Below are positions 987 through 47,793 of a stretch of DNA of 64,000 nt, in pieces (position 1 is the stretch's first letter; every line of letters starts with the position of its first letter). The position numbers and the translations under genes are program-made. The stretch comes from an uncultured bacterium (GTDB taxonomy: Bacteria > Patescibacteriota > JACMRA01): positions 96,001 to 160,000 of the forward strand of contig CAWAQU010000007.1 in the NCBI GenBank assembly GCA_963784355.1. The letters run 5' to 3'. Under the pieces are notes generated by a model that was not told the origin of the DNA, did no database searches, and saw only the letters and a program-made list of their open reading frames with translations.

Positions 987-1011
987 CAAAAAAACTTCTG
1001 CTTAAAGCAAT

Positions 1012-29714: not shown

Positions 29715-32700
29715 TTACCCAATCTCCACCTGCAACCCAGTAGCAGTAACAGTATAGGTGCCTTGAGGTAAATCAGTAAACTGGAACTTACCATCAACTG
29801 CTGTACTTGCTTGTCTATTTATTGTAATACCATTAGGCCCTGTACCGGATAGATTAACTTGTACACCACCTATTGGCTCATCGTTATCTTCTAAAGTATA
29901 TATATCCTCATCAAGTCCTGAAATATCAAAACTACCATTATTTTCCTTATCCCTAAATACTTTTCCTGTTATGGAAGAGTTGGAAGTGAGTACCGGAGTA
30001 AACTGGAAGAAGTTGATTGTTGATTTTTGATATATACTTGTATTTGTGATAGTTAGAGTTACCTCACTAACTGAACCTAAGTTGACAGTGGTTGGATCTT
30101 CTCTTTCTCCAGACCTACTTTTAGTTGTATTTGTGTTTAGTTTGCCGGTTAAGTTGTTGAGCTTTTTAATTATGTAAGTACCAGGTTCTAAATATGGGCC
30201 TGTATCAAAGTTACCAATAGTACTGTAAACTACTTCACCATTTTGTTTCTTAACTTCAAAGTTACAACCAGCTACCGGCCCATCAGCTGGGTTGTTGGGA
30301 TAAGTACTAAGCTGTCCGTCACCATTTTTATCATCAATACACTGCCCCTTTAATTTATTAGTATACACATAAATCAGATTATTTGTGATAACTGTACTAT
30401 TATCTATATTGACACCAGCTTTAACTATATCAGCATCGCTGTAGTCTACACCTCCAATCATAGTTGTACCCCATACCCACTTTTCACTAAGTATTTTCTT
30501 ACATTTAATTGTAGTTAAACACTGATCAACTACACCGGAAGCGTACTGAATTGGTATAATAGCGTTAGGAATAGGATTACTCTCCCCCTCGCCATCACTA
30601 AACTTATGCAATTTGTAATTACCAGTTGGCAGTCCTGTAATTTCGTAGTCTCCGCTTGAGTTTGCTGTAGCTGTGTAGGTACCAAGAGGCCCTACCACAG
30701 AAACTACCGTACCTGCAAGTACCGTTTCCCCAGTATTATATTCATTCTCACCTTGCTCGTCGCGTTGGTTGATAAATACTTTACCCTTAATAATATTGTT
30801 AGTGAAAGGACTAAATGGATAGTTCTTTGCTAAATTTTCACTAGCCAAAATACCTATAGGATCAGGGTTAGATAAACCGCCGCCTAAGGTAATTCCGGAT
30901 GGAATATTGTTAATACTAACTGAGTAATTTCCCGGCATCAAATTTCCAATTCCGGTTTGACCGCAACATGGATTTGGGCCAACGTTTGTAGCTACTACAG
31001 AGTTATCAGCTGTAGTTAAAGGATCACCTGTATAAGTCAGGGTAAATCTTATTGGGCCACCTTTTTCAGTTGCTAATTCAGACTCATCCCAGATACCATT
31101 GGCAATTGTGTCATGAAAGGCTCCTATAGTAAAGACTGCATTGTAGTCATAAGTAAAGTCTTGAGTAGTGTTGGTGTCTTGGTATACATATGTCCCTTCA
31201 GCAATGCACATTAAACAAGTTGTGCCACTTGGCGCCACGTCAGCAACTTGTACTCTGTAATATCCTTCAGCAAGGCCTGGGAAGTTGTACTCACCGTTTT
31301 GATTAGTATTTTGGGTAGCAATAAGTATATTATGCATATACAGCTGAATAATTTTTCCACTATATAGCTGTTCATTATCAAAAACAGTTGCCGGATTATT
31401 ATCTAAACCATTTGCTTCATAATCAGTGCTGCCTCTGTTTAAATATACTTTTCCACTTATGCTACTATTGTTTGTTGGGATAAAGCCGTAAGTAAGACTA
31501 AAGTTTTTAGTGATGTTATCAACTGTGAATTGTTTAGTAAGCTCGCTACCGGATAGTGGTGGATAAGGAGACTGCACTTGGGTAAATTCAACTTTGTAAT
31601 CTTTATTAGGAAGTCTTTTGAATATGAGTGTAGCTGGGTCTGTATAATCTGTTTGTGAGCTTACATTACCCAGAATATTCCCAGTAACTGCATCTTTAAA
31701 GACATAGACTCCTGTAGTGATTATAGTTTGATCTCTTCTACCATTGCTTTCATCTCCGTCTTGTTGATTGTTATGATTTTGGTCGATATACAACTGATTG
31801 CCTACATTACCGGTGTATCCAACAGCAAAGTCTCTATTTCTACTATCTACATTAGTTCCAGGAGTGATAGAACCATAATCTCCTCTATTGCGTAAGTTAT
31901 TAAAGAAATACCAACCTTTGTCTCCAAGGTAACTATTACACACAGTACTAGGTAAGCCCGTTAAACTTCCTTCTTCAGGTAAAGTTGTGATTTTAACTAC
32001 CTGATATGCTCCGGGTACTATACCTGTAAAGCTGTATTTACCATCACTATCTGTTGTAGTAGTTGGTGGGTTTAGATTCCACTGATTGACGTCGGCTTGA
32101 GTTTCTCCATATCCTCCCTCACATTTTATCAATTTAAACTGAACGCCTGAATATCTAAAGTCATCATCAAAACCATAGTCATGTCCGTCTGAAATACCAG
32201 TTTGCCCGTTGTTACCTAGTGGCTCATAGCTACCGTCTCCATCCCTATCATTCCAGATGTAACTTGTGATTGAAGAAGATGACATATTTGGAACGTAAGC
32301 AGCACCAGGATAATATCTAAAGCTAACCTCAGAAGTACTTCCTAGGTATACTGTAGTATTTTGTTCTGTAGCTGATAGTTCTGAGTAGAGCTGCTGATCA
32401 AACGGACTTTGAGAGTCGGGAATTAGAATAACAGTATAGTCTCTAGGTGGTATTTCTCTAATACAAGGATTTGCTGTGTTTAGAGTATAGATTTCCGTAG
32501 TTTGAGTAGATAAATAGCTATTGTATCTTAGCTGTACTTTGACCCCATAATCCAGTAAATTGGTATCTGTTGAGTCCAAATCACCATCGTTATTTTTATC
32601 AACATAGACTAAAGGACAAATCTTGGCGGTGTATTCAAATCCGAAGTTCTTATTTCTTATTTTTTCATTGGTTGTTACAGTACTAGCTAAAATTGAATTA

Positions 32701-35700
32701 GTCGGAAGCACTGCCTCAGTACCAAGTGGGGTAGGGACTCTTGTCTCGTAGTCACCCGGTTCAAGATTGATAAATTCATAATTACCATTAACATCAGTGA
32801 TAGTATAGATAGGAGCATCACTAAAGGCATTTGTGGTAGTATTTTTCTTGTATAACCTGACTTCTTTTTCAGTTAAAACTACATCGTTATCAAACACAGT
32901 GATTTCCAAAGTATCTTGACCGTACTTATCAAAAACTCCATTTCCGTTTCTATCAATATATACATTACCTCGAATAGCACCTTTATTGAAGCTAGAGTTA
33001 TTTGTATAACCAAAGTTCAAGGTAGTGTAGCTAGATGAAGCTATTGTCACTGCAACATTGTTTCCTCCTGTAGTTGATGAATATCCATTTGGAATAGTCT
33101 GCACAACTTTGTAATTATTTGGGAATAAATTATTGAAACAATCATTTCCACCACTGGAAGTACTAAAGCTTTTAATTACAGTATTAGGATCACTGGTTCT
33201 GTAAAGTTTAGTCAAAACACCTGGTATTTGAGCCTCATTTTCATCTTTACTCTCGTTAAAGTTTAAATCGTTGTAAGTATTTACTAAACAGATACTAGAA
33301 TTACCGTTGTAACCAAATTCAATATTTTTAGTTTCATTTGGCTGCAATACGACCAGTTGGTCTCCACCTGTTGTGCTGCTGCTGCCATTAGGAGCATCTT
33401 GGGTAATCAAATATTGCCCTGGAGCTACTCCATTGAAACAAGTGCTATTTGAGTTTGATACAACATCAGTCACTTTAGTTTCTAATATTGTTCCGTCGGT
33501 TGATTTTCTGTAGGTTGTGATGTTATCCAGTAGTATATCCTGGCCACTATTAAATTGACCTGGGGTCACAACATCTTCAAAGGTTTTAGCGGCGCAGATA
33601 TTACCATTACCATTGAAACCGAATTTAGGCCCAGCTTCTACTCCAAAGCTTGTGGTGATTGTTAGGTTTAAAGGTGTGGTATTGCTGTAACCGGTTGGAA
33701 TATTACTTGCACTCAGCTTATATTCACCTATTACTTGCGGATTGAAACATTGTTTAGTACTGCTGGTAGTTAGCTCACCGATTGTAATAGTTTCATTACT
33801 ATTTTTCAGAGTTATTTTTACTCCACCAAGCCTTACTTCACCACTATCAAAATTACCATTACTATTATCATCTCTAAATACTAAAGGACAAATCTTCGGG
33901 TTTCCGTTGTAACCGAATTTAACTGTTTTAGTTTCTCCTGAAGTAAAAGTACCAATGGATTGCTCCAGGCCTGTAGTTGAAATAGTATTTTCCAGTAGCG
34001 AAGCGGTTACTTTGTAGTAATTATTGAAAGCAATTATGTCAGTAAAACAGAGAGTGCCATTTGCTTGGAAAGAATTTACTTGATTACCATACTTATCTTT
34101 TAAGCTAACTGTAACACGCCCGTCGTTTATGAGATTTTCCCCCAAGTCGTAATTTCCGTCGCTGTCATAGTCTTCAAAAATCTGATTAGGACAAATCTGA
34201 CTATTTCCTTTGTAATTAAAGATAACATTTTGATCTTGAGCAAAGTTTACAGTCACATTTACTTTGGCAATGTTGGTAGTTTGAGTAAAGCCTCCTGTAG
34301 CATTTGTAATGGTAGCTCCGGTAGGTACAGTTTGCTCTATCCTATAATTACCCGGAATTACATCAGTAAAACAATTACCACTTCCACTTGGTAAATCAGC
34401 TCCAACTTGTTGGTTGTTAGAAACCTTGATTAATTTGCTAATTACACCATCAATTTCAGGCTCACCGGCATTGTTAGTACCATTTTTATTGTAATCATTT
34501 ATGGCAACAGGGCAGACTTTACTGTTACTGTAATAACCAAATTCAGCATTAGTTCCATCATTATTTACGAAGTTTTTAGTTTCCCCATTAGCTAAACTTA
34601 TATTTCTGGTTTGCTCACCTTGAGTTAAGCTTTTTGTGTTAGTGGTATTACCATCAGGAGACTGTTTAACCGTATAATTCCCCGGCATCAAATCTGCAAA
34701 ACAGTTAGTGTTATTGGTGTTGAACTGCCTGACTACTTTAGCACTGTCAATTAGAGTTGTTGTATAGCCAGCTATTAAAGGCTCACCCACGTCTTGAATC
34801 TTGTTTTTATTATCATCTCTAAAGGTAGGATTTGGACAAATTTGCCCGGTACCTTTGTATCCGAAGTAGACAGATTTATCAGTTTCAGGATCTAAACTTA
34901 CAGTCTGAGTTTGGATATTTCCGGTTGTTGTACCTGTAGTTGAAACTCCACCAGTTGGAATAATCTGCTCAATAGTGTAAGTTTTGTTTGGACTAACGGC
35001 TGCAAAACACTTGGTAGAAGAACCATCAGAAGTAATAGTTTCAATTACTGATCCGTTATCTTTAAGAGTACTTACTACTCCAATCATTAATGGTTCGTTT
35101 TCAAAAGTACCAAAAACGCTACTATTATTAATGTAGTCTCTAAATGGTAGGGGACAGACTTTTGCATTTCCTGTAAATACTTCAAAAGTAGAAGAGGCTT
35201 GTAAATTAGGGTTGGTGTCTCCGGCAGTTTGAGTAACTGCTGTATTTCCTGTACCGGCTTGATTTGGAATTGGGTCAACTGTACATACACCGTTTGCTAC
35301 AACTCCAGTTTCAGTAATTGGAGAGTTAAAGCTGGGCCCTGAAAATGTCATACTACAAGTAGCCCCATCCGTACCTTCCAGAGGCTCGTCGTTACCTGTA
35401 TCTTCCAATCCGCTAGTTCTAGCTGTAAATTTGTATCCGGCGTATACCTTATTAATTATGGTATTGTTTGCTCCATATGTGGTACTTAAGACTGTGCCTG
35501 TATTTTTTAATACTGCAGTACTGTTAGTTGCCAGTTTAGCTTTACCGCTAGCAAGCAGTCTATAGCCAAAAGCTGTGTCTTGATTGACTCCGAAAGCTAA
35601 TGTAATAGATTGTCTGACTTTATTGCCAGCTACAGTTCCACCGGTTGAAGATTGTGAGTTGGTGACTAAGTCTTGCTCTACGGTATAGTTTCCTGGAGCA

Positions 35701-38700
35701 ATAGGGCTGAAACAAATCTGTCCACTTTGATCTGTAGATACTTGTTGTTTCAAAGTATTTAAATCGCTACTTAGATACAGTCTTGTTATTTTGCTGTTTA
35801 TTGGTAAATCACTTCCACCAAAGCTACCATATCCTGGTTGACCGGCTTTATCTTTTTCCAGATAAGTTCTGTTGATACAGATTTGAGCGTTTCCGTTGTA
35901 AGCGAAGTTTTTTGTTTCAGTTGTATTTACTCCTAAAACTATCTGGTATTTTACTTTTCTATTTAGATTATCTACAATTACCCCGTTATTAGTTGCCAGC
36001 GGGAAAGTAAGGGTGCCTCCTACCGGATAACTCTGCTCTACAAAATATGTATCATCAAAGAGACTATTAAAACAATTATCTATACTTGTATTAGTTCCGT
36101 TAGTACCATCTACTGTAGTCAATGTTTTTCCGGAAATCGGATTTTGATTAGCATCCAGTAATCTGGTAGCTACACCTGCCAGTAAAGGCTCAGTACTTTC
36201 TTTAGTACCGTTACTATTATCATCTCTAAAGGTATTATTTACACAAATCTTAGAAGTTGGTGAGTACCTTACTTCAGTAGGAGTAGTAGCTGTTTCATAG
36301 GTATAGCTCGCGTTGAAATCAGTATTAAACACACTTACTACTGTTTTTAAAGTAGCACTTCCCGTAGAGCCTACTTGAGCTGCGGTGAAGTTTGTTGCAC
36401 ATTGTCCTTGGCTATCTAGTGTTGAAGTAACTGCAACTTCAGGATTTGCTCCGATTTTTAGAATATTTTTACAAGTTTGCCCGGTTAAATTACCGTTATT
36501 AGCAAAATTTCTAATATTTGGAGAGTAAATTATGGCAGATTGACCGGCAACAAGTGGGTTAGGGGAGAAGGTAAGAGTACCTGGAATAGTCCCTGTAAGA
36601 CCATTATTACCTGTTAGGTACAAATCAAAGCGTCTACTAAAGTTTGTTGTGTTTGTAGTTAGGGTCGTGTCATCACCATTTGAATTTTTACCGGCAACAG
36701 AGACAGTAAAGCTATAGCTTCCTTTTAAGTAACCTAACTCACTTCCTGTTGGGCTAGAAGTGCAAGTACCATTACTTGCTGCAGCTGAAGTTAAGCTAAA
36801 TTGACTACTGTCAGGTTTAGTGATTTTGAACTCACAAGTAGGCCCGTTTAAAGGTTGATTATTTGCAGAATCTGTAAGGCCTGAAACAGTTAAATTAACA
36901 CTTGTACCAACAAAAGTTGTAGTAACAGTAGTAGATCCGTTTACTGTAGGGGAATTGGAGACCGGAGTAGTACCGGTAGCTACCTTTGCTTTGTTTGAAG
37001 GAAAGCCTGTAGTTGGTATAGTAGTTTGGTTAGTTTCAAAAGGATAGTTTGTACTGCTATAGTTTAAAAGAACTATTGTTTTGACTTTCAAGACACCTGC
37101 AGTAATTACATTATTTGCAATTGTAGTCACACATTTTGAGCTTGCATCAAGAGTTGAAGCGTATTCTATTGGAGTCTGGCTATCAATTTGTACTAGGTTT
37201 TTACAAACTAGGCCTTGAGCTAAGTTAGTCGAGTTATCATATTTTTTGATAGTTGGAGAAGTTAGAGTAGGGTTAGCTCCGCCTGAAACAATCGGGCTAC
37301 TGCTAGATGTAATACTTCCCGGTATCTTACCATTTACATCAAAACTAGTTCCATTTGTTAGGTAAATGTCAAAGTATCTGTTGAAATTAGATGTATCCGT
37401 AGTCAAGCTACTACTTGGCCCCGCTACCGAAATACTAGCTGAGTATGTACCTGCTACATATGGTAAATCAGAAGGGGTAAAAGTTTTTTTACACACACCA
37501 CCAACAATGTTACTATCAGAAGCAAAGGTTTGGCTATAGCTATTTGGCCCCGTTATATTAAAAGTACAAGGTATACCATTTAAAGCTTGGTCGTTACCGG
37601 AGTCTTTTAATCCATCAAAAGTTAGGACTATATTACTACCGATAAAACCAGGATTAGGATTGGAAGTTAAAGAGTTGTAAATTGGTTTAGTTTGATTTGG
37701 TGAAGACTGAGCTTTTGCTTTATTGGAAGCAGAAGGGTAAACTGGAAAACCAACTACTTTTCCTTCCGTACTACCTCCACTAGTTACGCTTAAATTAGCT
37801 GTAAAGCTAGTAGCTTGAGTATCAACTGTATCGGGCGCAGGGAATGAAGCTGTAGTTACGCATGTACCCTGGCTTACAGTACCAGTTTTGGCTACTGGGG
37901 TAGAATAGTTTCCGGGGCCATTAATTGTAATTGTGCAAGTACCTGAATATACATCTCCTCCATATTTATTTTTAATATTACTTATACCACCTAGGAAAGT
38001 AGCTCCGGTTGATACTGGGTTAGGGTTTGGACTAAATAGAGCTGAAGTTAAATTAGTTTCAGGTGTATTAGGATCATAGATAGTACCAGTACAACCTGAA
38101 GTAGTAGCCGGGTAAGCAGCAGTAGCTGCCTCAGCGCAGTCACCGTTACCAGCTCCACCATTTACTGTAATTGAAGCCGTGGATGTGCCTTGTGACATAG
38201 TGCCTGTACGGTTGATGTAGTAAAGAGCAATACGGCCTCCTGCTCCGGCGCCACCATTTCCAGTAGAGTTTCCTCCTCCACTAGCACTAATACTACCACC
38301 ACCTGCTAGAGTATTAGCTGTGAGCCAAATGCTACCTCCTGAGCCTCCTCCACTACCATAAGCACCACCGCTTACATTTCCATTAGCACTAATACTACCA
38401 TTAACTGTAATAGTACCAGTTGCTACAAGTTTAATAGCTCCTCCTCCGTTTCCTCCATCTGCCGCACCTGAACAATATCCTCCACTTCCACTACCTCCTG
38501 AACCAAGATCAAGTGGTTCTGTAAGTGATCCATAACTGTTCCCCCCGATATTACCTGTATCAGAATCTCCTCCTTTTCCTCCATAACCTCCACCTGCTCC
38601 TCTTTGACCAGAACAATTAGCGGTAGCCGCTCCACCACCAGTACCGTTACCAGGTTGACCTGCGTTGGCACCTCCACCCGTATAACCCCTTCCATTCACA

Positions 38701-41700
38701 TCAATCTTAGCACCTGTATCTAACGTAATATTATTTGAGTTAATTATGACACTATTATCATGAGTAGCTACATTAGCTCTATGAGTAATAGTACTACCAC
38801 TATTAACAGTTAAAGTATTAAAGTTATATGTGTTTTTAGTACCTAGAGTAACTAAACTACCTGATTTGACTAAGAAAGTATCTGTTACAGTAGGAGTATT
38901 AGTTGTAGTTAAGTCTAAATTAGCGTTTTCAATAGTTAAATTAATTACTGTAAAAGCTGAACTAATAGGTGTAGTAGCAATATTACTTGAAGCAGTAGTA
39001 TTTCTAATAATCAAATCACCATTAGTTTTATCAGCAGGCTTATCATATATTGTACCTGCTCCTCCAGTTTGAAATCCAGTTCCTCCTGAAGCTGTAACAG
39101 CTCCTGAGAAAGTTTTACTTGCTGCTGTTGGGTAGTAAAGAGCAATACGGCCTCCTGCTCCGGCGCCACCATTTCCAGTAGAGTTTCCTCCTCCACTAGC
39201 ACTAATACTACCACCACCTGCTAGAGTATTAGCTGTGAGCCAAATGCTACCTCCTGAGCCTCCTCCACTACCATAAGCACCACCGCTTACATTTCCATTA
39301 GCACTAATACTACCATTAACTGTAATAGTACCAGTTGCTACAAGTTTAATAGCTCCTCCTCCGTTTCCTCCATCTGCCGCACCTGAACAATATCCTCCAC
39401 TTCCACTACCTCCTGAACCAAGATCAAGTGGTTCTGTAAGTGATCCATAACTGTTCCCCCCGATATTACCTGTATCAGAATCTCCTCCTTTTCCTCCATA
39501 ACCTCCACCTGCTCCTCTTTGACCAGAACAATTAGCGGTAGCCGCTCCACCACCAGTACCGTTACCAGGTTGACCTGCGTTGGCACCTCCACCCGTATAA
39601 CCCCTTCCATTCACATCAATCTTAGCACCTGTATCTAACGTAATATTATTTGAGTTAATTATGACACTATTATCATGAGTAGCTACATTAGCTCTATGAG
39701 TAATAGTACTACCACTATTAACAGTTAAAGTATTAAAGTTATATGTGTTTTTAGTACCTAGAGTAACTAAACTACCTGATTTGACTAAGAAAGTATCTGT
39801 TACAGTAGGAGTATTAGTTGTAGTTAAGTCTAAATTAGCGTTTTCAATAGTTAAATTAATTACTGTAAAAGCTGAACTAATAGGTGTAGTAGCAATATTA
39901 CTTGAAGCAGTAGTATTTCTAATAATCAAATCACCATTAGTTTTATCAGCAGGCTTATCATATATTGTACCTGCTCCTCCAGTTTGAAATCCAGTTCCTC
40001 CTGAAGCTGTAACAGCTCCTGAGAAAGTTTTACTTGCTGCTGTTGGGTAGTAAAGAGCAATACGGCCACCTGCTCCGGCGCCTGGAGTACCACCAGTACC
40101 AGCGTTACCACCATTAGCAGTAATACTACCACTACCTGCTAGAGTATTAGCTGTAAGCCAAATGCTACCTCCACTTCCACCTGCTCCTCCATAGCTGCTA
40201 CTTCCACCATCATTTCCATCAGCACTAATACTTCCATTTACTGTAATAGTACCTGTCACTTGTAATTTAATAGCTCCTCCTCCGTTTCCTCCATCTGCCG
40301 CACCTGAACAATATCCTCCACTTCCACTACCTCCTGAACCAAGATCAAGTGGTTCTGTAAGTGATCCATAACTGTTCCCCCCGATATTACCTGTATCAGA
40401 ATCTCCTCCTTTTCCTCCATAACCTCCACCTGCTCCTCTTTGACCAGAACAATTAGCGGTAGCCGCTCCACCACCAGTACCGTTACCAGGTTGACCTGCG
40501 TTGGCACCTCCACCAGTATAACCTCTCCCAACCCCATTAAGCGTACTACCCACACCTATATTCACACTACTTGCATACACTTTAAGTCCAACTCCCTGAG
40601 CTACATTTACAGTAGTTCCTGCTGCTACAGTAAACACTCCTACGTTACAATATCTTCCTGTTAGAGTATCTCCATTAGCTGGAGTAAGATTTGCTCCTTG
40701 AAGATCATTATCACAGTCTAGTTTATTTATACTTACTGTATTTGAGTCTACACTATTACCTGCTCCATTTGCAGCTATTATTTTAAATTGATAATCTTGA
40801 CCTGGAGTAAGACCTGTTACTGTACTATTTGGATTTGTATTAACTCCATCATTATATATTGTTTCAGTAGTAAAATTATTTTGACTATATTTAATTATAT
40901 AATCAGTAATACCACTTCCATTATCAAAAGGAGTTGTCCATTTTAAAAATACTTTATCTCCTTCTGTTTTATCTACAACTAAATCAGTAATAGGGTTAGC
41001 TTTACTAATACCTCCATAAGTAAAACTATTAAATACAACTGAACTAGTCCCATCAGAGTTGGTAATCTTTACAGTTTGAGTACCTGTACCACTTGGAGTG
41101 TAAATTGTAGCTGTAGTAGAGTTGACAAGGTCAGCATATACCTCATTAGCTCCTATTTTAACTATGATACCTCTATTTTCAGAAGATAAGCTTGTAGTTG
41201 GCATGGAGCTGGTATTGTATAATCTATACTTGGTGTTTAGGTAGGATTCGATTGTTTGGCGGTCGGGGTTTGAGAGAGAAGAATTAAAAATTAAAGTTTC
41301 AGCTATATCTCCACTATGATTACCATATGTATCACTACCCAACTGTTTTGGAGCGTACACTGTAGTTTTAGGTGAAGTTAGTCCAGTTCTTACACTTGAA
41401 CCGTTAAGGTATATGGTTGGCTGTTTTGCAGTGTACTGTAATCCTATTAAATTGTTTACTGTTCCTACATTTCCATTATATACTGCCAAAGGCGGCATAT
41501 AGCTGGCCCCATGCTCATATATAGAAATACCGTTTGTACCAAGAGAAATACCAGCCCCCGCATCCATATTTGAAGGCCATAGTAAGTATCTTTGCCCACC
41601 TGTACCAGTGGCTGTACCATTGCTTTCTGCATCAATCTCATGAGTGACATCAGTTTTTGCTACGGAAAAAACAGTAAAATCATTGGTTGCCGGATGATTA

Positions 41701-44700
41701 GCACTTGCAATAAAATCATTACTACCATCAAACCTAACCACAGGCAACCCATTAATCACCCCACTCTTATACACAGGTTGATTAGCTGCAGTAGCTTGAA
41801 CAGCATTATTGTTACTTCCACTTCTATCACTCCATTGACTGACAGCTTGTCCATCAGTACTAGTACCAGCTCCATCATTAGCTTTAAGCCATAACTTATT
41901 ATTAGTACCACTTAGTACTGAACCAAATGAAAAATTATTAAGATTGCTTTGTGAAGTTAAGCTAGGTTCATTATATCTAACAAAAACCTTTTTGCTGCTA
42001 TTTGCTCCTATACTAGGTACCTTCACCCATACCACAGTACTACCACTACCACAACCTCCATCTATCCAATAGTTTAAATCAGTAGTTCCATCAGCATCCT
42101 TTATTCTTAAATCTCCACAATCACTTCTCATTTTACCTGCTGATATTAAAGATTGAGTATCTAATACAAAACTAGTTTCATAGTTACTAAGAGCTGAGCC
42201 TGGGTTGGTGAGAGTTAGTGTTCTTTGGTAAAGATTAGACCCAAAATTGTTACCAGTAATAGTTAGAAAAGTACCTCCACTATTAGGACCTGTATTTGGA
42301 GAGATAGATGTAATACTTGGAGCTACATAACTAAAGCTAAAACTATTACTACCAGTTCCATCTGGATTTACTACTTTAAGCTGTACTGTACCCAAAGCAT
42401 GAGCTGGTGTAATTACTTTAAGTTGGGTAGGGGAGATGTATTGGGTTTGAGATATGAGATTACCATCTATGTTGACGCCACCCCCAAAAGAACCTTCTGT
42501 ATTTGATATTGATACAGTTGGCATGGAGCTGGTATTGTAGAGTTTGTATTTTGTGTTTAGGTAGGATTCTACCACTGAACTATTTTCCGGACTCAAATCA
42601 CTACCCAAGCCTATTATTTCTGCTATATCAACATTTAGATAGTATGTATTCTCAGTAGCAGCTAATTGCATTGATCTAATATCAGTAGGGCTAGCTGTTT
42701 TTAAATTCATCAACATTGGGCTATCAATAGGGGTAAGATTAAACGGATTCACTAAATCTGTACTATTTTTCCTAACTGCTCTTGGGTATGGGTTGAAATG
42801 AAGTATAGTATTCCCTGATTCAAATAAACCCATCCTATTCCCGCCTGAGTTTCCAAGTATACCTCCATAACTAGTAAAGTTAGGAGTGTTTGATTTAAAA
42901 ACTGTAAGATATTGAGAAATTGCTGCTGGATTTTGTATGTTAAGTGTATCATTACTACCATCAAACCTAATCACAGGTAATCCATTAATCACCCCACTCT
43001 TATACACAGGCTGATTAGCTGCAGTAGCTTGAACAGCATTATTGTTACTTCCACTTCTATCACTCCATTGACTGACAGCTTGTCCATCAGTACTAGTACC
43101 AACTCCATCATTGGCTTTTAACCATAACTTATTATTAGTACCACTTAGTACTGAACCGAATGAAAAATTATTAAGATTACTTTGGGAAGTTAAACTTGAA
43201 TCTCCATAAGTAAGATAAACAGTCTTACTACTACTTGCTCCTATACTTGGAACTTTAAACCATACTAAAGTACTACCAGTATTACAACCACTTTCTATCC
43301 AATAACTAAGATCAGTAGTTCCATCAGCATCTTTTATTCTTAAGTCTCCACAATCACTTCTCATCTTTCCACTACTAATCAAACTAGCTGTATCAACCAC
43401 CACACTTCCTTCATAGTTAGTTAGGGGAGTAGTTGATGGGTTGGTTATTGTGATTGTTTTTCTTATTCCTATAATACCAAAGTTACTTCCATTAACAATA
43501 ATCTCTTTACCTCCTGTTGTAGGACTCTCACTAGAACTTAATGAACTAATACTAGGTGCAGCATAAGTAAAGTTAAGACTACTAGTTTCAGTTCCATCAG
43601 CATTAACTATTTTTACTGTAACTGTACCGGGAGCATGTTGAGGAGTTGTAAACTTGAATTGAGATTGGGAAAGTAACTGAGCGCCACTAACTATAGTTCC
43701 ATCTAGCTTTACTTTATTTAGGGATAATTCACTGCCTATTGTAGTGGTAGCTATACTAGAGGTGTTGTATAGCCTGTATTTAACGTTTAAAAACTTTTCT
43801 ACATTCTGACGATCTGTATTGGATAAAGATGAGTTAAACACCAATACCTCGGCAATTTGTGCATTTGAGTATTCTCCAAAAGAAGGGGTACCATTCAAAG
43901 AAATACCATTTGGGCCTGATAGTCCTCCCGCATTACTTGCTATCAAAGTACCGTTTCCATAAATACTTGAAATCGAACCTGTTCCCCCGCCGGAGTATAA
44001 ATTCCAGGATGTATCTGAAGGTGTACTACCGTTAGCTACCCAGCCGTCAGGATGAAATTTATCTTTACCACCTCCCCAGTACCCAAACAACCAGTTATTA
44101 TTCACACCTGCCATTACTCGACTATTAGCCCCTCCAGTCTGCCTAGAGACATAAAGTACGCTATATGGCGGTTGGAAATTTGTATTATTTGTAAGAGTTT
44201 GTGAAGCTGCTGCTGAAAACTCGACTACCGGCAAACCATTTAAAATATTAGATTTAAATTTAGGTTGTCTAGTGGCTGTGGCTTGTGTAAAATTATTATT
44301 ATTTCCACTCTTATCACTCCATTGACTGATTGACTGTCCATCTGCAGTGGCTCCCACTCCGTCATTGGCTTTAATCCATGATTTTAAATTAGCACCCCCT
44401 AATATACTGCCAAAGCTAAAATTTGATATATTACTCTCACTAACCAAACTACTATTACCATAATTCAAATAAATACTCTTACTTGCTCCGGCTGAAATAC
44501 TAGGTACTTTTGCCCAAATTACAGTACTACCACTACCACAACCTCCATCTATCCAATAATTCAAACTAGTAGTTTTATCACTATCCTTTATTCTTAAATC
44601 CCCACAATCACTTTTCATCTTACCTGTGCTTATCAAGCTAGCTGTATCTAAAGTAAAACTAACTTCGTAATCAGTTAAATTAGTTGCTCCAGCTCCACTA

Positions 44701-47555
44701 TTATTAATCACTACTTCTCTCTCATAACCATTCCCAAAATTACTACCATCAATAACTACTTCAGTCCCTCCACTTGTAGCTCCACTACTAGGACTAAGAC
44801 TAGTTATCTTAGTAACAAAAGTAACACTACTTGTATCACTAGCTACTCCACTACCACTTGAATTTGTTGCAACTACTCTAAAACTATAGTTAGGCCCAAA
44901 CTTTAAATTATTTATTGTAGTACTTGTTCCTGTAATTGAATTTGAGTGAGTAAAAATATTATTGTTAAATCCATCATTACTATACTGAACACTATAACTA
45001 CTTGCTCCACTTGTACTATTCCAGCTTAAATTAGCACTAATCTCATCAGCATTTTTAACTGCACTAAGTCCTGTAACTTTATCAGGTACTCCTAAGGGAG
45101 AACTAGATTCATTAGAGGTAGCTAAAGTATAGTAACCATCTTGTAAATCAGCATTTGCTACAGAAAAGCTAATTTGATCACCATTAGCTAGGGTAGGGGT
45201 AGTATTTGCTACAGTAGAAAAACTACCTGTGTTACTAGATCTATAAAGCAATCTATAGTTACTAATGTTTCCGGGTAATCCACCTGTATATTTACTTAAA
45301 TCAAAACTAACTTTAGCATCTACTCCATCAGTAACAGTCTTTTTAATACCCCAGACTTTATTCCATCTTTTAGTTGTTCCTGAAGGTAGGTCAGAAGTTA
45401 CTACTGTTTTACCAGCTCCATCATTACCTGCAAAAACATACTCTCCATCAGCTAAGCTGTTGTTGGATTGAGCTAGCTCTAATTCATCACTAAGATTGTT
45501 ATTTACTCCTCCATCAGACTCTTTACCAATACCGGCAAGGTTATTTGTAGCAGAGGTTAAGTTGTATTTACTGCTGGAAAGAGTTAGACCATACTTAGAA
45601 GCTAAGTAGTTTTCTATGATTGTGCGTTCTGTGGTAGACAAAGCTTTTGGTAGGATTATTATTTCGGAGATGTCGCCTTTTAAATTGTAAGCTGAGTTAG
45701 CAGGGTAATTTCCTATCTTAGTAATATTGAATGCATCGGTAGCCATGCCTGAGTTTGTAGGACCCGCTGTGCCATTTAAATAGCTTATTGCAGTTGTCCC
45801 ATTTTGAACTGAGCCCATTACCGCATAGCTATTATCTAATGTGGATCCAGATTCTGCTACTCCTCCTGCACCGCTGCCGGCATCATTGTGGGCTATTACA
45901 AACTTATTTCTTTTGATATTTGAGTAAGTTCCGACTGTCGCAACTCCAAAATATTTATCTGATGGACCTGTTCCTAAATAAATACTACCTGTTGCAGAGT
46001 CATTATTATTGGCAACAATGAAAGCTGATACCTTATCACTAAAGCTAACATTATTTAGGTCAAAGTTTTTTGTACCATCAAACCTAACAACCGGCTTACT
46101 ATTTAAAGTATTATCAACTAAGCTAGGTTGACTTGTAGCTGTAGCTTGAGTAGCATTATTCCCAATACCACTTTGATCTTGCCAGTTACTAATCTTTCCT
46201 GATCCGTCTTTAACTATACCACTATCAGCTTTAAGCCATAGACTTGTTTTAACTGTATCACAACCTGCAACAGGTAAATTATATTTTTTGGATAGGTAGC
46301 ACTCGGCTTGTTTTCTTTCTGAATCTGATAGAGCTCGATCATAGATCAATACTTCAGAAATATCACCGTTAAAATCACCAGGGCCAATCGTCGTAGCTCC
46401 CGTAGTGGTATTGACTCCTGATGTAGAATTACTAATAGATTGATTTTGACCATTTACAAATAAACTCGCTGTGGCTCCATCTCTCATACCTGACCATAAT
46501 TCCCAGTTAGTAGTAGCTGCACCATCACTCACCCAGGCTATACCAGCGTGGTGAATATTTCTTGTCCCTCCATTAAAATACAAACCAGCTCCATTTGCAT
46601 TCTGTACAATACCTTTAGTTGATCCTGTATCATTAGTCTTAGCAACAGATATCATAGTATAAAAACCATTACCAACTACTACATTTGCAGTAGAAAGATT
46701 ATCATTACTCCCATCAAACCTAACCACTCCCTTCCCATTTAACCCACTACTCACCAACAACGGCTGACTACCCTCGCTACTCTGACTAGCATTATTACTA
46801 TTCCCACCACTAACATCATTCCAACTCTTCACATACTTAGTTCCGCCACTATCTCTAACCTGACTACTATCACTTGCATCAATTTGACTAGCATCTAATC
46901 TTAACTTTAATCCATCTGTAACTGTTAAATCATCAGGATCATTATTATAGTTTAATCCTGCGCTTCCTTTCTCAGCATCATCATCAAGTATAGTATAGGT
47001 AAAACTAGCAGTACTACCTAAAACAACTCCACCGGTAGGACTAGACAGCGTAACTACAACAGTCTCATTACTTTCAACCCCACTATCATTAACTATCTTT
47101 AAAGGAACACTACCAACTGTTTGGCCTGCTGGAATAACTAAACTTCCACTAGCTAAACTATAGTCAGCTCCATTACCTGTAGCCGTACCACCTGTGACAG
47201 TAAAATTAACTGAAGTACTACTAGTAGTAGCCTGAGATAAATTAACAGTAACTGAAGGATTACTAGTAACTTCAAGACCTGCTGATGAACTAGTAAGAAA
47301 CTGTATAGTACTACTACTTGCCTTAGCATTATTTAAATTTAAAAGACTAGGTAATATAGCTGTGATAATTACTATTGTACCTAGACCAATTAAACTACCA
47401 AGGACTATTACTTTCTGTTTTTTTGATAGCTTAAAATTCTTTAGAGCTGGGAAAGAGAAAAAGGAAAGCCTACTGGCTATTACCAGTCTATTAAACTTAA
47501 GTCTTTTATTTAGATTTACCTTAGCACTCTTTAATACTTTACTTAGAAAGTTCAT
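29715..47555 (-). CDS. Giant N-anchored surface adhesin (5946 aa): Calx-beta, 5 LamG-like lectin modules, FN3, 3 IPT/DUF2341 units, Gly-rich repeats, Cys-paired Ig-like domains, about 18 SdrD-B-like domains
   Basis: Uninterrupted ORF; basic N-tail plus TM helix; TILDDD (Calx-beta); WLKA..W.D.SG..N.A.Q...P...RFDG...GDI.E (LamG-like); SDCGDLR..YWI..W.KVP (DUF2341); SP..G...GGT...G.NFG (IPT); F.D.N.NG..D.GE..G.Y.V...FGY (SdrD-B). Confidence 0.9.
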   Translation of the reverse strand: MNFLSKVLKSAKVNLNKRLKFNRLVIASRLSFFSFPALKNFKLSKKQKVIVLGSLIGLGTIVIITAILPSLLNLNNAKASSSTIQFLTSSSAGLEVTSNPSVTVNLSQATTSSTSVNFTVTGGTATGNGADYSLASGSLVIPAGQTVGSVPLKIVNDSGVESNETVVVTLSSPTGGVVLGSTASFTYTILDDDAEKGSAGLNYNNDPDDLTVTDGLKLRLDASQIDASDSSQVRDSGGTKYVKSWNDVSGGNSNNASQSSEGSQPLLVSSGLNGKGVVRFDGSNDNLSTANVVVGNGFYTMISVAKTNDTGSTKGIVQNANGAGLYFNGGTRNIHHAGIAWVSDGAATTNWELWSGMRDGATASLFVNGQNQSISNSTSGVNTTTGATTIGPGDFNGDISEVLIYDRALSDSERKQAECYLSKKYNLPVAGCDTVKTSLWLKADSGIVKDGSGKISNWQDQSGIGNNATQATATSQPSLVDNTLNSKPVVRFDGTKNFDLNNVSFSDKVSAFIVANNNDSATGSIYLGTGPSDKYFGVATVGTYSNIKRNKFVIAHNDAGSGAGGVAESGSTLDNSYAVMGSVQNGTTAISYLNGTAGPTNSGMATDAFNITKIGNYPANSAYNLKGDISEIIILPKALSTTERTIIENYLASKYGLTLSSSKYNLTSATNNLAGIGKESDGGVNNNLSDELELAQSNNSLADGEYVFAGNDGAGKTVVTSDLPSGTTKRWNKVWGIKKTVTDGVDAKVSFDLSKYTGGLPGNISNYRLLYRSSNTGSFSTVANTTPTLANGDQISFSVANADLQDGYYTLATSNESSSPLGVPDKVTGLSAVKNADEISANLSWNSTSGASSYSVQYSNDGFNNNIFTHSNSITGTSTTINNLKFGPNYSFRVVATNSSGSGVASDTSSVTFVTKITSLSPSSGATSGGTEVVIDGSNFGNGYEREVVINNSGAGATNLTDYEVSFTLDTASLISTGKMKSDCGDLRIKDSDKTTSLNYWIDGGCGSGSTVIWAKVPSISAGASKSIYLNYGNSSLVSESNISNFSFGSILGGANLKSWIKANDGVGATADGQSISQWSDKSGNNNNFTQATATRQPKFKSNILNGLPVVEFSAAASQTLTNNTNFQPPYSVLYVSRQTGGANSRVMAGVNNNWLFGYWGGGKDKFHPDGWVANGSTPSDTSWNLYSGGGTGSISSIYGNGTLIASNAGGLSGPNGISLNGTPSFGEYSNAQIAEVLVFNSSLSNTDRQNVEKFLNVKYRLYNTSSIATTTIGSELSLNKVKLDGTIVSGAQLLSQSQFKFTTPQHAPGTVTVKIVNADGTETSSLNFTYAAPSISSLSSSESPTTGGKEIIVNGSNFGIIGIRKTITITNPSTTPLTNYEGSVVVDTASLISSGKMRSDCGDLRIKDADGTTDLSYWIESGCNTGSTLVWFKVPSIGASSSKTVYLTYGDSSLTSQSNLNNFSFGSVLSGTNNKLWLKANDGVGTSTDGQAVSQWSDRSGSNNNAVQATAANQPVYKSGVINGLPVIRFDGSNDTLNIQNPAAISQYLTVFKSNTPNFTSYGGILGNSGGNRMGLFESGNTILHFNPYPRAVRKNSTDLVNPFNLTPIDSPMLMNLKTASPTDIRSMQLAATENTYYLNVDIAEIIGLGSDLSPENSSVVESYLNTKYKLYNTSSMPTVSISNTEGSFGGGVNIDGNLISQTQYISPTQLKVITPAHALGTVQLKVVNPDGTGSNSFSFSYVAPSITSISPNTGPNSGGTFLTITGNNFGSNLYQRTLTLTNPGSALSNYETSFVLDTQSLISAGKMRSDCGDLRIKDADGTTDLNYWIDGGCGSGSTVVWVKVPSIGANSSKKVFVRYNEPSLTSQSNLNNFSFGSVLSGTNNKLWLKANDGAGTSTDGQAVSQWSDRSGSNNNAVQATAANQPVYKSGVINGLPVVRFDGSNDFIASANHPATNDFTVFSVAKTDVTHEIDAESNGTATGTGGQRYLLWPSNMDAGAGISLGTNGISIYEHGASYMPPLAVYNGNVGTVNNLIGLQYTAKQPTIYLNGSSVRTGLTSPKTTVYAPKQLGSDTYGNHSGDIAETLIFNSSLSNPDRQTIESYLNTKYRLYNTSSMPTTSLSSENRGIIVKIGANEVYADLVNSTTATIYTPSGTGTQTVKITNSDGTSSVVFNSFTYGGISKANPITDLVVDKTEGDKVFLKWTTPFDNGSGITDYIIKYSQNNFTTETIYNDGVNTNPNSTVTGLTPGQDYQFKIIAANGAGNSVDSNTVSINKLDCDNDLQGANLTPANGDTLTGRYCNVGVFTVAAGTTVNVAQGVGLKVYASSVNIGVGSTLNGVGRGYTGGGANAGQPGNGTGGGAATANCSGQRGAGGGYGGKGGDSDTGNIGGNSYGSLTEPLDLGSGGSGSGGYCSGAADGGNGGGAIKLQVTGTITVNGSISADGNDGGSSSYGGAGGSGGSIWLTANTLAGSGSITANGGNAGTGGTPGAGAGGRIALYYPTAASKTFSGAVTASGGTGFQTGGAGTIYDKPADKTNGDLIIRNTTASSNIATTPISSAFTVINLTIENANLDLTTTNTPTVTDTFLVKSGSLVTLGTKNTYNFNTLTVNSGSTITHRANVATHDNSVIINSNNITLDTGAKIDVNGRGYTGGGANAGQPGNGTGGGAATANCSGQRGAGGGYGGKGGDSDTGNIGGNSYGSLTEPLDLGSGGSGSGGYCSGAADGGNGGGAIKLVATGTITVNGSISANGNVSGGAYGSGGGSGGSIWLTANTLAGGGSISASGGGNSTGNGGAGAGGRIALYYPTAASKTFSGAVTASGGTGFQTGGAGTIYDKPADKTNGDLIIRNTTASSNIATTPISSAFTVINLTIENANLDLTTTNTPTVTDTFLVKSGSLVTLGTKNTYNFNTLTVNSGSTITHRANVATHDNSVIINSNNITLDTGAKIDVNGRGYTGGGANAGQPGNGTGGGAATANCSGQRGAGGGYGGKGGDSDTGNIGGNSYGSLTEPLDLGSGGSGSGGYCSGAADGGNGGGAIKLVATGTITVNGSISANGNVSGGAYGSGGGSGGSIWLTANTLAGGGSISASGGGNSTGNGGAGAGGRIALYYINRTGTMSQGTSTASITVNGGAGNGDCAEAATAAYPATTSGCTGTIYDPNTPETNLTSALFSPNPNPVSTGATFLGGISNIKNKYGGDVYSGTCTITINGPGNYSTPVAKTGTVSQGTCVTTASFPAPDTVDTQATSFTANLSVTSGGSTEGKVVGFPVYPSASNKAKAQSSPNQTKPIYNSLTSNPNPGFIGSNIVLTFDGLKDSGNDQALNGIPCTFNITGPNSYSQTFASDSNIVGGVCKKTFTPSDLPYVAGTYSASISVAGPSSSLTTDTSNFNRYFDIYLTNGTSFDVNGKIPGSITSSSSPIVSGGANPTLTSPTIKKYDNSTNLAQGLVCKNLVQIDSQTPIEYASTLDASSKCVTTIANNVITAGVLKVKTIVLLNYSSTNYPFETNQTTIPTTGFPSNKAKVATGTTPVSNSPTVNGSTTVTTTFVGTSVNLTVSGLTDSANNQPLNGPTCEFKITKPDSSQFSLTSAAASNGTCTSSPTGSELGYLKGSYSFTVSVAGKNSNGDDTTLTTNTTNFSRRFDLYLTGNNGLTGTIPGTLTFSPNPLVAGQSAIIYSPNIRNFANNGNLTGQTCKNILKIGANPEVAVTSTLDSQGQCATNFTAAQVGSTGSATLKTVVSVFNTDFNASYTYETATTPTEVRYSPTSKICVNNTFRDDNSNGTKESTEPLLAGVATRLLDANQNPISGKTLTTVDGTNGTNTSIDNCFNSLFDDTYFVEQSYPVGGTLTFPLATNNGVIVDNLNRKVKYQIVLGVNTTETKNFAYNGNAQICINRTYLEKDKAGQPGYGSFGGSDLPINSKITRLYLSSDLNTLKQQVSTDQSGQICFSPIAPGNYTVEQDLVTNSQSSTGGTVAGNKVRQSITLAFGVNQDTAFGYRLLASGKAKLATNSTAVLKNTGTVLSTTYGANNTIINKVYAGYKFTARTSGLEDTGNDEPLEGTDGATCSMTFSGPSFNSPITETGVVANGVCTVDPIPNQAGTGNTAVTQTAGDTNPNLQASSTFEVFTGNAKVCPLPFRDYINNSSVFGTFENEPLMIGVVSTLKDNGSVIETITSDGSSTKCFAAVSPNKTYTIEQIIPTGGVSTTGTTTGNIQTQTVSLDPETDKSVYFGYKGTGQICPNPTFRDDNKNKIQDVGEPLIAGYTTTLIDSAKVVRQFNTNNTNCFADLMPGNYTVKQSPDGNTTNTKSLTQGEQTRNISLANGETKNFVNNDGTNAEFGYYSNSKVCPVAINDYNKNGTNNAGEPEIDGVISKLIKVSNNQQVGADLPSGSGNCFTDVIPGNYRIEQTVPTGATITNATGGFTQTTNIAKVNVTVNFAQDQNVIFNYKGNSQICPNQIFEDYDSDGNYDLGENLINDGRVTVSLKDKYGNQVNSFQANGTLCFTDIIAFNNYYKVTASLLENTISTTGLEQSIGTFTSGETKTVKFGYNGNPKICPLVFRDDNSNGNFDSGEVRLGGVKITLKNSNETITIGELTTSSTKQCFNPQVIGEYKLSASNIPTGYSNTTPLNLTITTSFGVEAGPKFGFNGNGNICAAKTFEDVVTPGQFNSGQDILLDNITTYRKSTDGTILETKVTDVVSNSNSTCFNGVAPGQYLITQDAPNGSSSTTGGDQLVVLQPNETKNIEFGYNGNSSICLVNTYNDLNFNESKDENEAQIPGVLTKLYRTSDPNTVIKSFSTSSGGNDCFNNLFPNNYKVVQTIPNGYSSTTGGNNVAVTIASSSYTTLNFGYTNNSSFNKGAIRGNVYIDRNGNGVFDKYGQDTLEITVFDNDVVLTEKEVRLYKKNTTTNAFSDAPIYTITDVNGNYEFINLEPGDYETRVPTPLGTEAVLPTNSILASTVTTNEKIRNKNFGFEYTAKICPLVYVDKNNDGDLDSTDTNLLDYGVKVQLRYNSYLSTQTTEIYTLNTANPCIREIPPRDYTVILIPDSQSPFDQQLYSELSATEQNTTVYLGSTSEVSFRYYPGAAYVPNMSSSSITSYIWNDRDGDGSYEPLGNNGQTGISDGHDYGFDDDFRYSGVQFKLIKCEGGYGETQADVNQWNLNPPTTTTDSDGKYSFTGIVPGAYQVVKITTLPEEGSLTGLPSTVCNSYLGDKGWYFFNNLRNRGDYGSITPGTNVDSRNRDFAVGYTGNVGNQLYIDQNHNNQQDGDESNGRRDQTIITTGVYVFKDAVTGNILGNVSSQTDYTDPATLIFKRLPNKDYKVEFTQVQSPYPPLSGSELTKQFTVDNITKNFSLTYGFIPTNNSSISGKVYLNRGSTDYEANGLDNNPATVFDNEQLYSGKIIQLYMHNILIATQNTNQNGEYNFPGLAEGYYRVQVADVAPSGTTCLMCIAEGTYVYQDTNTTQDFTYDYNAVFTIGAFHDTIANGIWDESELATEKGGPIRFTLTYTGDPLTTADNSVVATNVGPNPCCGQTGIGNLMPGNYSVSINNIPSGITLGGGLSNPDPIGILASENLAKNYPFSPFTNNIIKGKVFINQRDEQGENEYNTGETVLAGTVVSVVGPLGTYTATANSSGDYEITGLPTGNYKLHKFSDGEGESNPIPNAIIPIQYASGVVDQCLTTIKCKKILSEKWVWGTTMIGGVDYSDADIVKAGVNIDNSTVITNNLIYVYTNKLKGQCIDDKNGDGQLSTYPNNPADGPVAGCNFEVKKQNGEVVYSTIGNFDTGPYLEPGTYIIKKLNNLTGKLNTNTTKSRSGEREDPTTVNLGSVSEVTLTITNTSIYQKSTINFFQFTPVLTSNSSITGKVFRDKENNGSFDISGLDEDIYTLEDNDEPIGGVQVNLSGTGPNGITINRQASTAVDGKFQFTDLPQGTYTVTATGLQVEIG
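38217..40514. repeat. 915-bp in-frame tandem repeat, about 2.5 copies
   Basis: Units start at 38217, 39132 and 40047; the first two appear identical and the third is partly diverged; shadow ORFs recur at 915-nt offsets. Confidence 0.95.
41716..43193. repeat. About 245-bp near-identical direct repeat (41716-41960 and 42949-43193)
   Basis: Both copies encode SQSNLNNFSFGSVLSGTNNKLWLKANDG...RFDGSND with only scattered substitutions. Confidence 0.9.
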
Positions 47556-47793
47556 ACTTTGTTTTTATTTCTGTTTTTGTTTCTTTTTTATTTACCTAGT
47601 TTAGGTTTTTATCTTTTACCTACTACCTAGTTAAGCTTTTGAAGATAGATGTTTTTTGTTGTGTAGTTGTGTTTAGTTGTTTTTGTTTGTAATTGTAGTG
47701 TGCTGTTTAGCTTTGAGTTGATGAGCTAGTTGTTTGCTTTGTTTAGTTATTATTTATTGTTATTCAGTTACTAGTTTCTACTGATTTTCCATG

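Follow-up and report, generated by a model that had tools for sequence, protein, structure and literature searches.

The giant surface-protein gene and its skew

The stretch of DNA analysed here (the window) comprises 64,000 nucleotides (nt) of an uncultured bacterium (GTDB lineage Patescibacteriota; JACMRA01), i.e. positions 96,001 to 160,000 of contig CAWAQU010000007.1 (C7 in the following) in assembly GCA_963784355.1. The source is one metagenome-assembled genome of 13 contigs and 1.14 Mb, with 33.6% G+C, that is 81% complete. The window carries a giant open reading frame (ORF) for a surface protein of 5,946 amino acids (aa). The protein begins with a hydrophobic membrane anchor and a Calx-beta domain, followed by a head in which five LamG-type (Laminin_G_3) units are interleaved with FN3, TIG and DUF2341 domains; three glycine-rich repeats of ~305 aa each and a long stalk complete it. 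The units belong to LamG/Laminin_G_3 according to a PF13385 match of 34.9-35.4 bits (cut-off 27.6). Our subject is the excess of G over C on the coding strand of this gene. We find that its silent component is a real, localised and lineage-specific codon pattern that is tied to the boundaries of cores which vary between paralogues.

An earlier note, made from the letters of this DNA alone, had described an extreme strand skew over positions 38217-47330 that switches off inside the variable cores. Its hand counts were exact, i.e. 60 C and 8 G at 46711-46860 (plus-strand skew -0.765) and 25 C and 23 G at 46321-46440 (-0.042). The alternation that it saw by eye at 44400-45060 and 41720-42130 corresponds to skews of -0.47 and -0.44, and the C-terminal stalk is indeed close to ordinary (+0.001 over 30000-38000). 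The plus-strand skew of the whole span is -0.211, and the 150-nt profile swings between ~-0.6 and ~0 or positive values. As the giant ORF lies on the minus strand, its coding strand is G-rich and C-poor.

The contribution of the protein sequence was calculated with a codon background taken from 761 non-overlapping ORFs (150 aa or longer; 81% of the genome). Here, the residual is the observed (G-C) minus the expectation given the amino acid of each codon. Expected and observed skew in 50-codon windows are correlated with r = 0.86 over the whole gene and r = 0.83 over 38217-47555, and about half of the skew is amino-acid composition. The glycine-rich repeats have an expected skew of +0.31 to +0.43 and an observed one of +0.37 to +0.60; the residual is small (-0.7 to +12.5 per 50 codons, mostly ~+2 to +6), so the skew there is simply glycine. 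In three stretches of the gene the observed skew is +0.56 to +0.64 versus an expected +0.20 to +0.25. The genome-wide standard deviation of the residual is 4.6 per 50 codons (5,773 non-overlapping windows from the 761 ORFs), and a residual of at least +15 is found in 12 windows. Six of them lie in the giant gene, which has 118 windows; four of the other six are in two other giant genes and one is in a 709-aa ORF of C7.

In other words, the skew is composed of two layers, a protein rich in Gly, Asp, Val and Ser and a lineage-specific choice of codons. That the entire skew is amino-acid composition, which would make the finding an ordinary one, agrees with the above correlations and with the glycine-rich repeats, for which it accounts wholly. 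Nevertheless, the gap between observed and expected skew in the three stretches, their rarity in the genome and scores beyond a resampling null (see below) make this very improbable, and composition as the sole cause is accepted for the repeats and rejected for the islands described next. The span of the earlier note thus has to be divided: codon choice is real in the islands, and the part at 38217-40655 is driven by amino acids.

The glycine-rich repeats stand in tandem over 38217-40510, ~915 nt each, and look like a beta-helix-type spacer. Two of them are 100% identical over aligned 300-nt blocks, which suggests a very recent duplication, homogenisation or an assembly collapse.

Silent-site islands

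Maximal-scoring segments of the residual were calibrated by resampling synonymous codons while keeping the protein the same. The 99% null score is 6.9 and the maximum in 300 trials is 8.8; two segments, islands A and B, score 22.7 and 19.3 (Table 1), and the skew is accordingly not a matter of amino acids alone. Island A has AGY codons at 15 of 15 serines, G-ending codons at 8 of 9 Lys/Glu/Gln positions and no C-ending codon among 14 two-fold pyrimidine codons. The earlier note's remark that Ser is written as AGT and Arg as AGA or AGG fits this island, where two AGA and one AGG are found for Arg. Six GGG runs occur within 177 nt (46698-46874), i.e. 33.9 per kb; the whole genome has 6,506 GGG in 1.14 Mb. 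Island B (Ser AGY 37/41) avoids C without gaining G at four-fold sites, where C is at 1% and G at 7%.

An island of this kind was also seen in an unrelated giant gene of 4,157 aa on contig C12 (C12:187242-199715, minus strand), where a C-avoiding segment at codons 3218-3376 scores 20.0. It ramps up and stops sharply where an Ig-like domain meets a Pro/Thr linker.

The codon usage of the three islands is distinct from that of the genome. C at four-fold sites is at 1-5% versus 13%, C-ending two-fold pyrimidine codons are at 0-8% versus 24%, and G-ending Lys/Glu/Gln codons are at 60-89% versus 25%. With 22 of 23 serines in the C12 island, AGY is used at 74 of 79 serines overall versus 44% in the genome, and serine alone makes up 43-61% of the island residual. 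Leucine is TTR at 15 of 21 positions over the three islands and at 14 of 15 in A and B (the lone exception is CTT), and all arginines are AGR. Third-position G+T amounts to 86% in island A and 71% in the part of island B at codons 901-1050, versus 52% in the genome.

The result does not depend on one choice of background. As alternatives we used the whole gene, its head, the other ORFs of 1,500 aa or more, and the remaining minus-strand ORFs of C7. Under all four, the segment at codons 1928-1955 is significant together with islands A and B; island B shrinks under the two own-gene backgrounds. The other minus-strand genes of C7 are free of the skew, and with them as background the islands score 24.5 and 24.6; this and the absence of a net skew from the stalk of the giant gene itself speak against a replication-related or strand-wide skew. 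Antisense coding as a cause was ruled out, the longest open frame opposite the giant gene being 70 aa. No common site motif was found at the island ends, only compositional k-mers.

Variable blocks and a second, broken copy

Self-comparison of the genome revealed a second locus, C10:3712-20902, that is paralogous to positions 29715-47611 of the window. The homology runs from 56 nt 5' of the start codon to the stop codon and not beyond, which indicates a separate locus. This copy is disrupted. An additional A near nt 455 throws the Calx-beta domain out of frame and the stalk falls into several frames, but the head keeps an open frame of 3,951 aa. The copy could be a silent donor or a decaying pseudogene, or it could hold assembly errors in repeats. 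The head is mosaic: all 60-nt windows over codons 201-260 and 561-1040 are 100% identical to the C7 gene, the LamG-1 core, the whole LamG-3 and the LamG-5 core are unalignable, and the rest of the head is 72-90% identical. Island B ends at the very point where the 100% identity stops.

We note that a third contig, C8, carries the C10-type downstream flank (C8:1-5797 versus C10:1-5790, 99.4% identity over 5.8 kb). Over the last 2.08 kb of the stalk (window 29718-31798), C8 is C7-like at 10 of 10 sites that separate C7 from C10, and six further sites are peculiar to C8. This end of C8 may represent a strain variant that arose by recombination, or a chimera made at a repeat during assembly.

Variable blocks were defined as at least three consecutive 25-codon bins with a best identity to the C10 locus below 0.72. 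Four blocks follow from this rule (Table 1). It is conspicuous that the silent G-excess peaks in the 25 codons directly upstream of the blocks (mean +11.8) and decays over ~225 codons. Summed over 50 codons, the residual is +77.7 upstream of the blocks (circular-shift P = 0.005) and -14.9 downstream of them (P = 0.03); the difference between the two sides has P = 0.009. Inside the blocks the mean residual is +0.025 per codon, i.e. the codons are typical of the genome, and near the block ends it is -3.4 per 25 codons. The claim that the skew is off inside the cores is thus true of the silent layer too. The expected change-points at core boundaries are also found, as three of four island ends lie within 9 codons of the start of a rule-defined block (P about 1e-4, with a threshold picked post hoc).

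The suggestion that frames and cores have different histories holds as well. The cores are unalignable with C10 and have genome-typical codons, and their flanks are up to 100% identical and skewed. The "frame" is the wrong unit, however: between the five homologous LamG frames the residual varies from +0.04 to +0.59 per codon, and island B lies on FN3-TIG-DUF2341 and not on a LamG frame. The own frame of LamG-3 is part of a variable block, and the G-excess is found upstream of this block instead of at its customary site in the domain.

The ends of other duplicated tracts of the genome agree with a link to junctions, which is suggestive only. Where the homology lies upstream of the junction, the mean is +5.9 per 40 codons (8 junctions, 6 of them positive, several mutual copies); where it lies downstream, the mean is -0.9 (10 junctions). 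Three ORFs that overlap tracts duplicated between contigs, C7:158-2284, C8:4481-5932 and C8:11352-12203, also hold smaller G-excess segments (scores 7.9-8.9); in C8:4481-5932 the segment (codons 97-104) sits at the end of the duplicated tract.

Table 1. Positions of the giant ORF, its silent-site segments and its variable blocks in the window.
Feature	Position	Codons	Strand	Remarks
Giant ORF	29715..47555		-	5,946 aa, surface protein; N-terminal membrane anchor to C-terminal stalk
Island A, synonymous G-excess	46704..46907	217-284	-	score 22.7; N-terminal strands of LamG unit 1
Island B, synonymous G-excess, C-avoiding	44430..45044	838-1042	-	score 19.3; FN3, TIG, first DUF2341
Minor G-excess segment	43224..43406	1384-1444	-	score 7.4; not significant under every background
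Minor G-excess segment	41691..41774	1928-1955	-	score 8.6; end of LamG-5 frame, directly before variable core
Variable block 1, LamG-1 core	46281..46730	276-425	-	residual ~0; last 25 codons C-rich (-7.0)
Variable block 2, whole LamG-3 including its own frame	43731..44405	1051-1275	-	residual ~0; next 25 codons -5.4
Variable block 3, LamG-4 core	42606..42905	1551-1650	-	identity to C10 <0.72
Variable block 4, LamG-5 core	41256..41705	1951-2100	-	identity to C10 <0.72
Synonymous C-excess segment	45534..45698	620-674	-	LamG-2 end; significant only versus the gene's own codon usage
Synonymous C-excess segment	42420..42569	1663-1712	-	score 8.9; at/after LamG-4 end
Synonymous C-excess segment	41232..41282	2092-2108	-	score 10.2, mean -0.85 per codon; C10 homology resumes after LamG-5 core
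Three Gly-rich repeats	38217..40655		-	no Pfam match; strong skew set by amino acids
C-terminal stalk	29715..38216		-	SdrD_B/SpaA/CarboxypepD_reg-type repeats; no net skew (+0.001); third-position C 18%; 96% identical to C10 copy over 9.9 kb

Opposite skew at the far ends of the LamG units

The C-terminal ends of the LamG units show a weaker mirror image of the islands, i.e. segments of synonymous C-excess (Table 1). Here, serine is TCN at 24 of 31 positions, 16 of 37 two-fold codons end in C, and C and G are at 23% and 2% of the four-fold sites. In 9 of 9 near-complete LamG units of the genome the N-side exceeds the C-side (+0.21 versus -0.20 per codon), some of these units being mutual copies.

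Comparison with relatives

Homologous open frames of 1,746 to 6,205 aa are present in relatives of the same family. Seven homologous giant genes (~30,500 codons) have no island that scores at least 7.5, either with the codon table of the present genome or with their own. A hidden Markov model (HMM) made from the five LamG units gave 32 domain matches in relatives. Only near end-to-end matches were counted, so that the split LamG-4 unit and partial matches were dropped. The 27 near-complete units of the seven relatives show no asymmetry between the N- and the C-side (+0.014 versus +0.001, N>C in 16 of 27, p = 0.55). The skew as a conserved property of the domains is ruled out by these genes and units. 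The amino-acid layer is not shifted in this genome versus the relatives (p = 0.44 and 0.94).

In aligned columns where both sides have serine, island B uses AGY where the relatives use TCN in 136 cases and AGY in 125; outside the islands the boxes are mixed in both. Conserved serines have thus moved to the AGY box, at two substitutions each, which suggests a lasting directional force on the nucleotide sequence and not drift. A search for close donor DNA found none in genome contigs (18 loci) or metagenome contigs (28 loci), the best segments being 40-66% identical and partial.

A separate observation concerns the DUF2341 segment with the end of TIG (44430-44732), which is 54-61% identical over ~100 aa to proteins of DPANN archaea (Aenigmatarchaeota, Nanopusillus, Woesearchaeota). 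Most of the loci concerned (L021-L030) fall in this range, and two further archaeal loci (L027, L029) match at 45%. This equals or exceeds the identity to bacterial relatives of the same family over longer spans. DUF2341 may be a surface-protein module common to two groups of small-celled organisms.

The genome uses the standard genetic code. TGA ends 47 of the 761 long ORFs, with a median read-through extension of 9 codons, and there is no UCA anticodon among the 41 tRNAs of the genome. Alternative code 25 was ruled out on the absence of this tRNA and on the 81% coverage of the genome by ORFs of at least 150 aa. The SR1 lineage reads TGA as Gly, and the depositor of one genome from the same family gave it the label "candidate division SR1"; in the seven relatives, the homologous giant genes are nevertheless open under the standard code. 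Either the SR1 label or the code assignment of the family deserves a check.

Recombination arms as a possible explanation

The explanation that we put forward, tentatively and as something short of probable, is that the silent skew belongs to recombination arms. The LamG cores would be exchangeable cassettes, and the sequences that flank them would be homology arms held in common with the broken C10 copy. The strand that ends 3' at the core would be kept G/T-rich and C-poor at silent sites, i.e. the coding strand upstream and the template strand downstream, and this polarity is the one expected if a break or gap in the core were resected 5' to 3'. The skew could be accumulated damage of exposed single-stranded tails (deamination of C to U and of A to hypoxanthine), or it could reflect selection for tails with which RecA pairs efficiently. 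The genome encodes RecA and a PDDEXK-nuclease protein. We infer recombination as the cause; what we observe directly is the islands, where they lie with respect to the blocks, the weak mirror image and the absence of the pattern from the relatives. A more specific idea is that C7 holds the expression site and the broken gene on C10 is its silent donor. The receptor-like LamG cores of a giant adhesin would then be swapped by site-anchored homologous recombination, via arms that have evolved, or been worn into, a mirrored composition with a G/T-rich 3' tail strand; in its full form this appears rather unlikely to us.

A number of results weigh against recombination arms. The C12 island is equally strong, and it has neither a paralogue in the assembly nor a mirrored partner. 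Downstream of the cores the reversal is weak, and at the LamG-2 end the C-excess lies in a unit that does not vary between the C7 and C10 copies. The amino-acid layer is unshifted relative to the relatives, and the thresholds of the block and junction tests were picked after the data had been seen. The common ancestry of modules 2 and 3 and the C10 copy reduces the independent units to about 4-6, and the evidence comes from one genome, 81% complete, in which the two copies could in principle stem from two co-binned strains. An actual exchange event was not observed. Recent substitutions give no support either: among 89 polarised singletons in four module copies, 16 transitions go in the predicted direction (C>T 2, A>G 14) versus 23 in the reverse one (G>A 13, T>C 10; p = 0.34), and C rises by 8 on balance. 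This test is of low power, includes non-synonymous sites and receives about half of its changes from one copy.

The damage version has two further difficulties, namely that a switch of serine from the TCN to the AGY box is not attainable by deamination and that two UDG-family genes are present. The earlier note had proposed, as one option, repeated single-strand exposure with loss of C to T. Its geometry fits, but there is no C-to-T excess and the serine box switch goes beyond C-to-T changes. Within the recombination-arm explanation we lean slightly to selection or to a past episode over ongoing damage, because the recent substitutions are without an ongoing C-to-T bias.

Alternative explanations

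The skewed pieces may instead be a historical mosaic, i.e. imports from unknown donors or the product of a past episode of biased mutation that is now decaying; the islands would then coincide with junctions because imports end at recombination breakpoints. The 3' ends of the islands are sharp and coincide with homology breakpoints, the recent singletons lose G and gain C as in amelioration, and the tracts that hold the strongest islands show no difference between the copies (100% identity), which implies recent copying. We still consider a mosaic a minority possibility. A close donor was not found (best matches 40-66% identical, in partial segments), a single donor gene cannot yield G-excess on one side and C-excess on the other in 9 of 9 units, and the identical tract at codons 561-1042 is in part skewed and in part unskewed. 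Moreover, the extreme usage (Ser AGY 15/15, G-ending 8/9) is local and is not the gene-wide usage of any of the seven relatives' genes. Shared ancestry together with chance, whereby a few ancestral skewed segments were multiplied by duplication within and between the two loci, has in its favour that the LamG-4, LamG-5 and C10 frames are 95-100% alike and that C7 and C10 carry islands A and B in identical form. It is made unlikely by the resampling null and by the relatives, as 22.7 and 19.3 are far above the resampling maximum of 8.8 (300 trials) and conserved serines have moved to AGY relative to the relatives. Furthermore, units at saturated divergence (LamG-1, LamG-2, island B and a small C10 gene) agree in their sign pattern, and we regard this explanation as improbable.

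Two other explanations act on the transcribed strand or the RNA. In the first, which was also an option of the earlier note, a G-rich, C-poor non-template strand is selected for R-loops or G-structures that trigger recombination beside the cores, in the manner proposed for the vls cassettes of Borrelia and for immunoglobulin switch regions. The GGG runs of island A (six in 177 nt, 33.9 per kb) and the position of the islands directly upstream of variable cores are compatible with it, no RNase HI was found in the genome (81% complete), and a coding-strand skew of ~0.52 in the vls cassettes is considered important for gene conversion (PMC11499132). On the other side, RNase HII is present, the reversed skew downstream of cores is not predicted, island B avoids C without the gain of G at four-fold sites, and the glycine-rich repeats are equally G-rich without a synonymous push. 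None of the nine loose G-quadruplex motifs of the genome (four runs of at least three G, loops up to 12 nt) lies in the gene, which speaks against a G-quadruplex trigger of recombination. All in all we find this explanation unlikely. Selection at the level of RNA or translation, i.e. a C-poor and G-rich mRNA for weak folding, for translation pacing at domain starts or for termination resistance, strikes us as more unlikely still; it would be linked to junctions only because these fall at domain boundaries. Island B does end at the end of DUF2341 and the C12 island at the boundary of an Ig-like domain and a Pro/Thr linker, and the amino-acid layer is untouched as expected of weak selection on silent sites. 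On the other hand, the homologous domains of seven relatives lack the pattern, and the homologous frames within the gene vary from +0.04 to +0.59 per codon. The islands are not stretches of slow codons, since Lys, Glu and Gln have cognate tRNAs with C34 and serine is most often AGT in this genome. Pairing of the flanks is no stronger than in codon-shuffled versions (z -0.55 to +0.03); a stem between G-rich and C-rich flanks, the duplex energies of which equal those of the shuffled controls, was likewise rejected, and only six short inverted repeats (14-22 nt, 80-87%) were found, none of which specifically brackets a core. The Rho RNA-binding domain PF07497 has no match in this 81% complete genome, while the control matched 9 of 14 reference genomes; at this completeness the absence of Rho is probable and not proven. 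Avoidance of Rho is not supported on this ground, and neither is the remaining option of the earlier note, avoidance of C-rich termination signals, for which the unskewed 8.5-kb stalk is a further point against.

Significance and relation to known systems

Bacteria of this kind, which have small genomes and giant surface proteins and are probably attached to a host, are uncultivated. A local GC skew within a gene can be separated into a trivial amino-acid part and a silent part, and only the latter informs on DNA transactions. If the recombination-arm explanation is true, the polarised silent-site skew marks the arms of cassettes and reveals a cassette-exchange system in this lineage. It would then provide a sequence-only way to place recombination junctions and their polarity in metagenome-assembled genomes. 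In other words, a signal or scar of recombination would be readable from codon usage and could be used to find cassette-exchange systems in uncultivated bacteria.

Immunoglobulin switch regions and pilE/pilS or MgPa-type systems target recombination to a surface-exposed protein by means of G-rich non-template DNA or silent partial copies. Unlike in those systems, no G-quadruplex motif was found in the present gene, there is no evidence of a deaminase, and no array of partial copies was seen.

The polarity has a counterpart in yeast. Mutation clusters that arise with a single-strand DNA deaminase during bidirectional resection are described as having mutated C to the left and mutated G to the right of the break on the top strand (PMC6786661). 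The present gene shows the same polarity, with C lost on the top strand left of the presumed break and G right of it. The yeast clusters, however, are single events in a laboratory eukaryote with an added deaminase, whereas we deal with an evolutionary state of codon usage that includes the Ser, Leu and Arg boxes and in which the C-to-T test is negative. RecA has a binding preference for TGG repeats (PMC3763553). As in such TGG-rich or Chi-like sequences, the strand that would end 3' at the core is enriched in G+T at silent sites; unlike them, the enrichment is compositional, with no discrete motif at the island ends.

The vls system of Borrelia resembles the present case in several respects. 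Both have a variable surface protein in a low-GC bacterium, a coding-strand skew of G over C (~0.52 in the vls cassettes, where it is considered important for gene conversion), and an intact gene next to a non-expressed donor (PMC11499132). The donors differ: vls has a contiguous array of short silent cassettes, and here we see one full-length broken paralogue, with no array found in the 81% complete assembly. Switching was not observed here; the tracts that are 100% identical between the C7 and C10 loci could be an indirect sign of conversion. A keyword search of the open-access literature gave no report of a mirrored silent-site skew flanking bacterial variable cassettes, which is not proof of absence. 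The skew and the high G+C of vls cover the cassettes themselves, whereas the silent skew described here lies in the flanks and is ~0 in the cores. The difference from vls thus lies in the placement of the silent skew, together with a weak opposite skew downstream.

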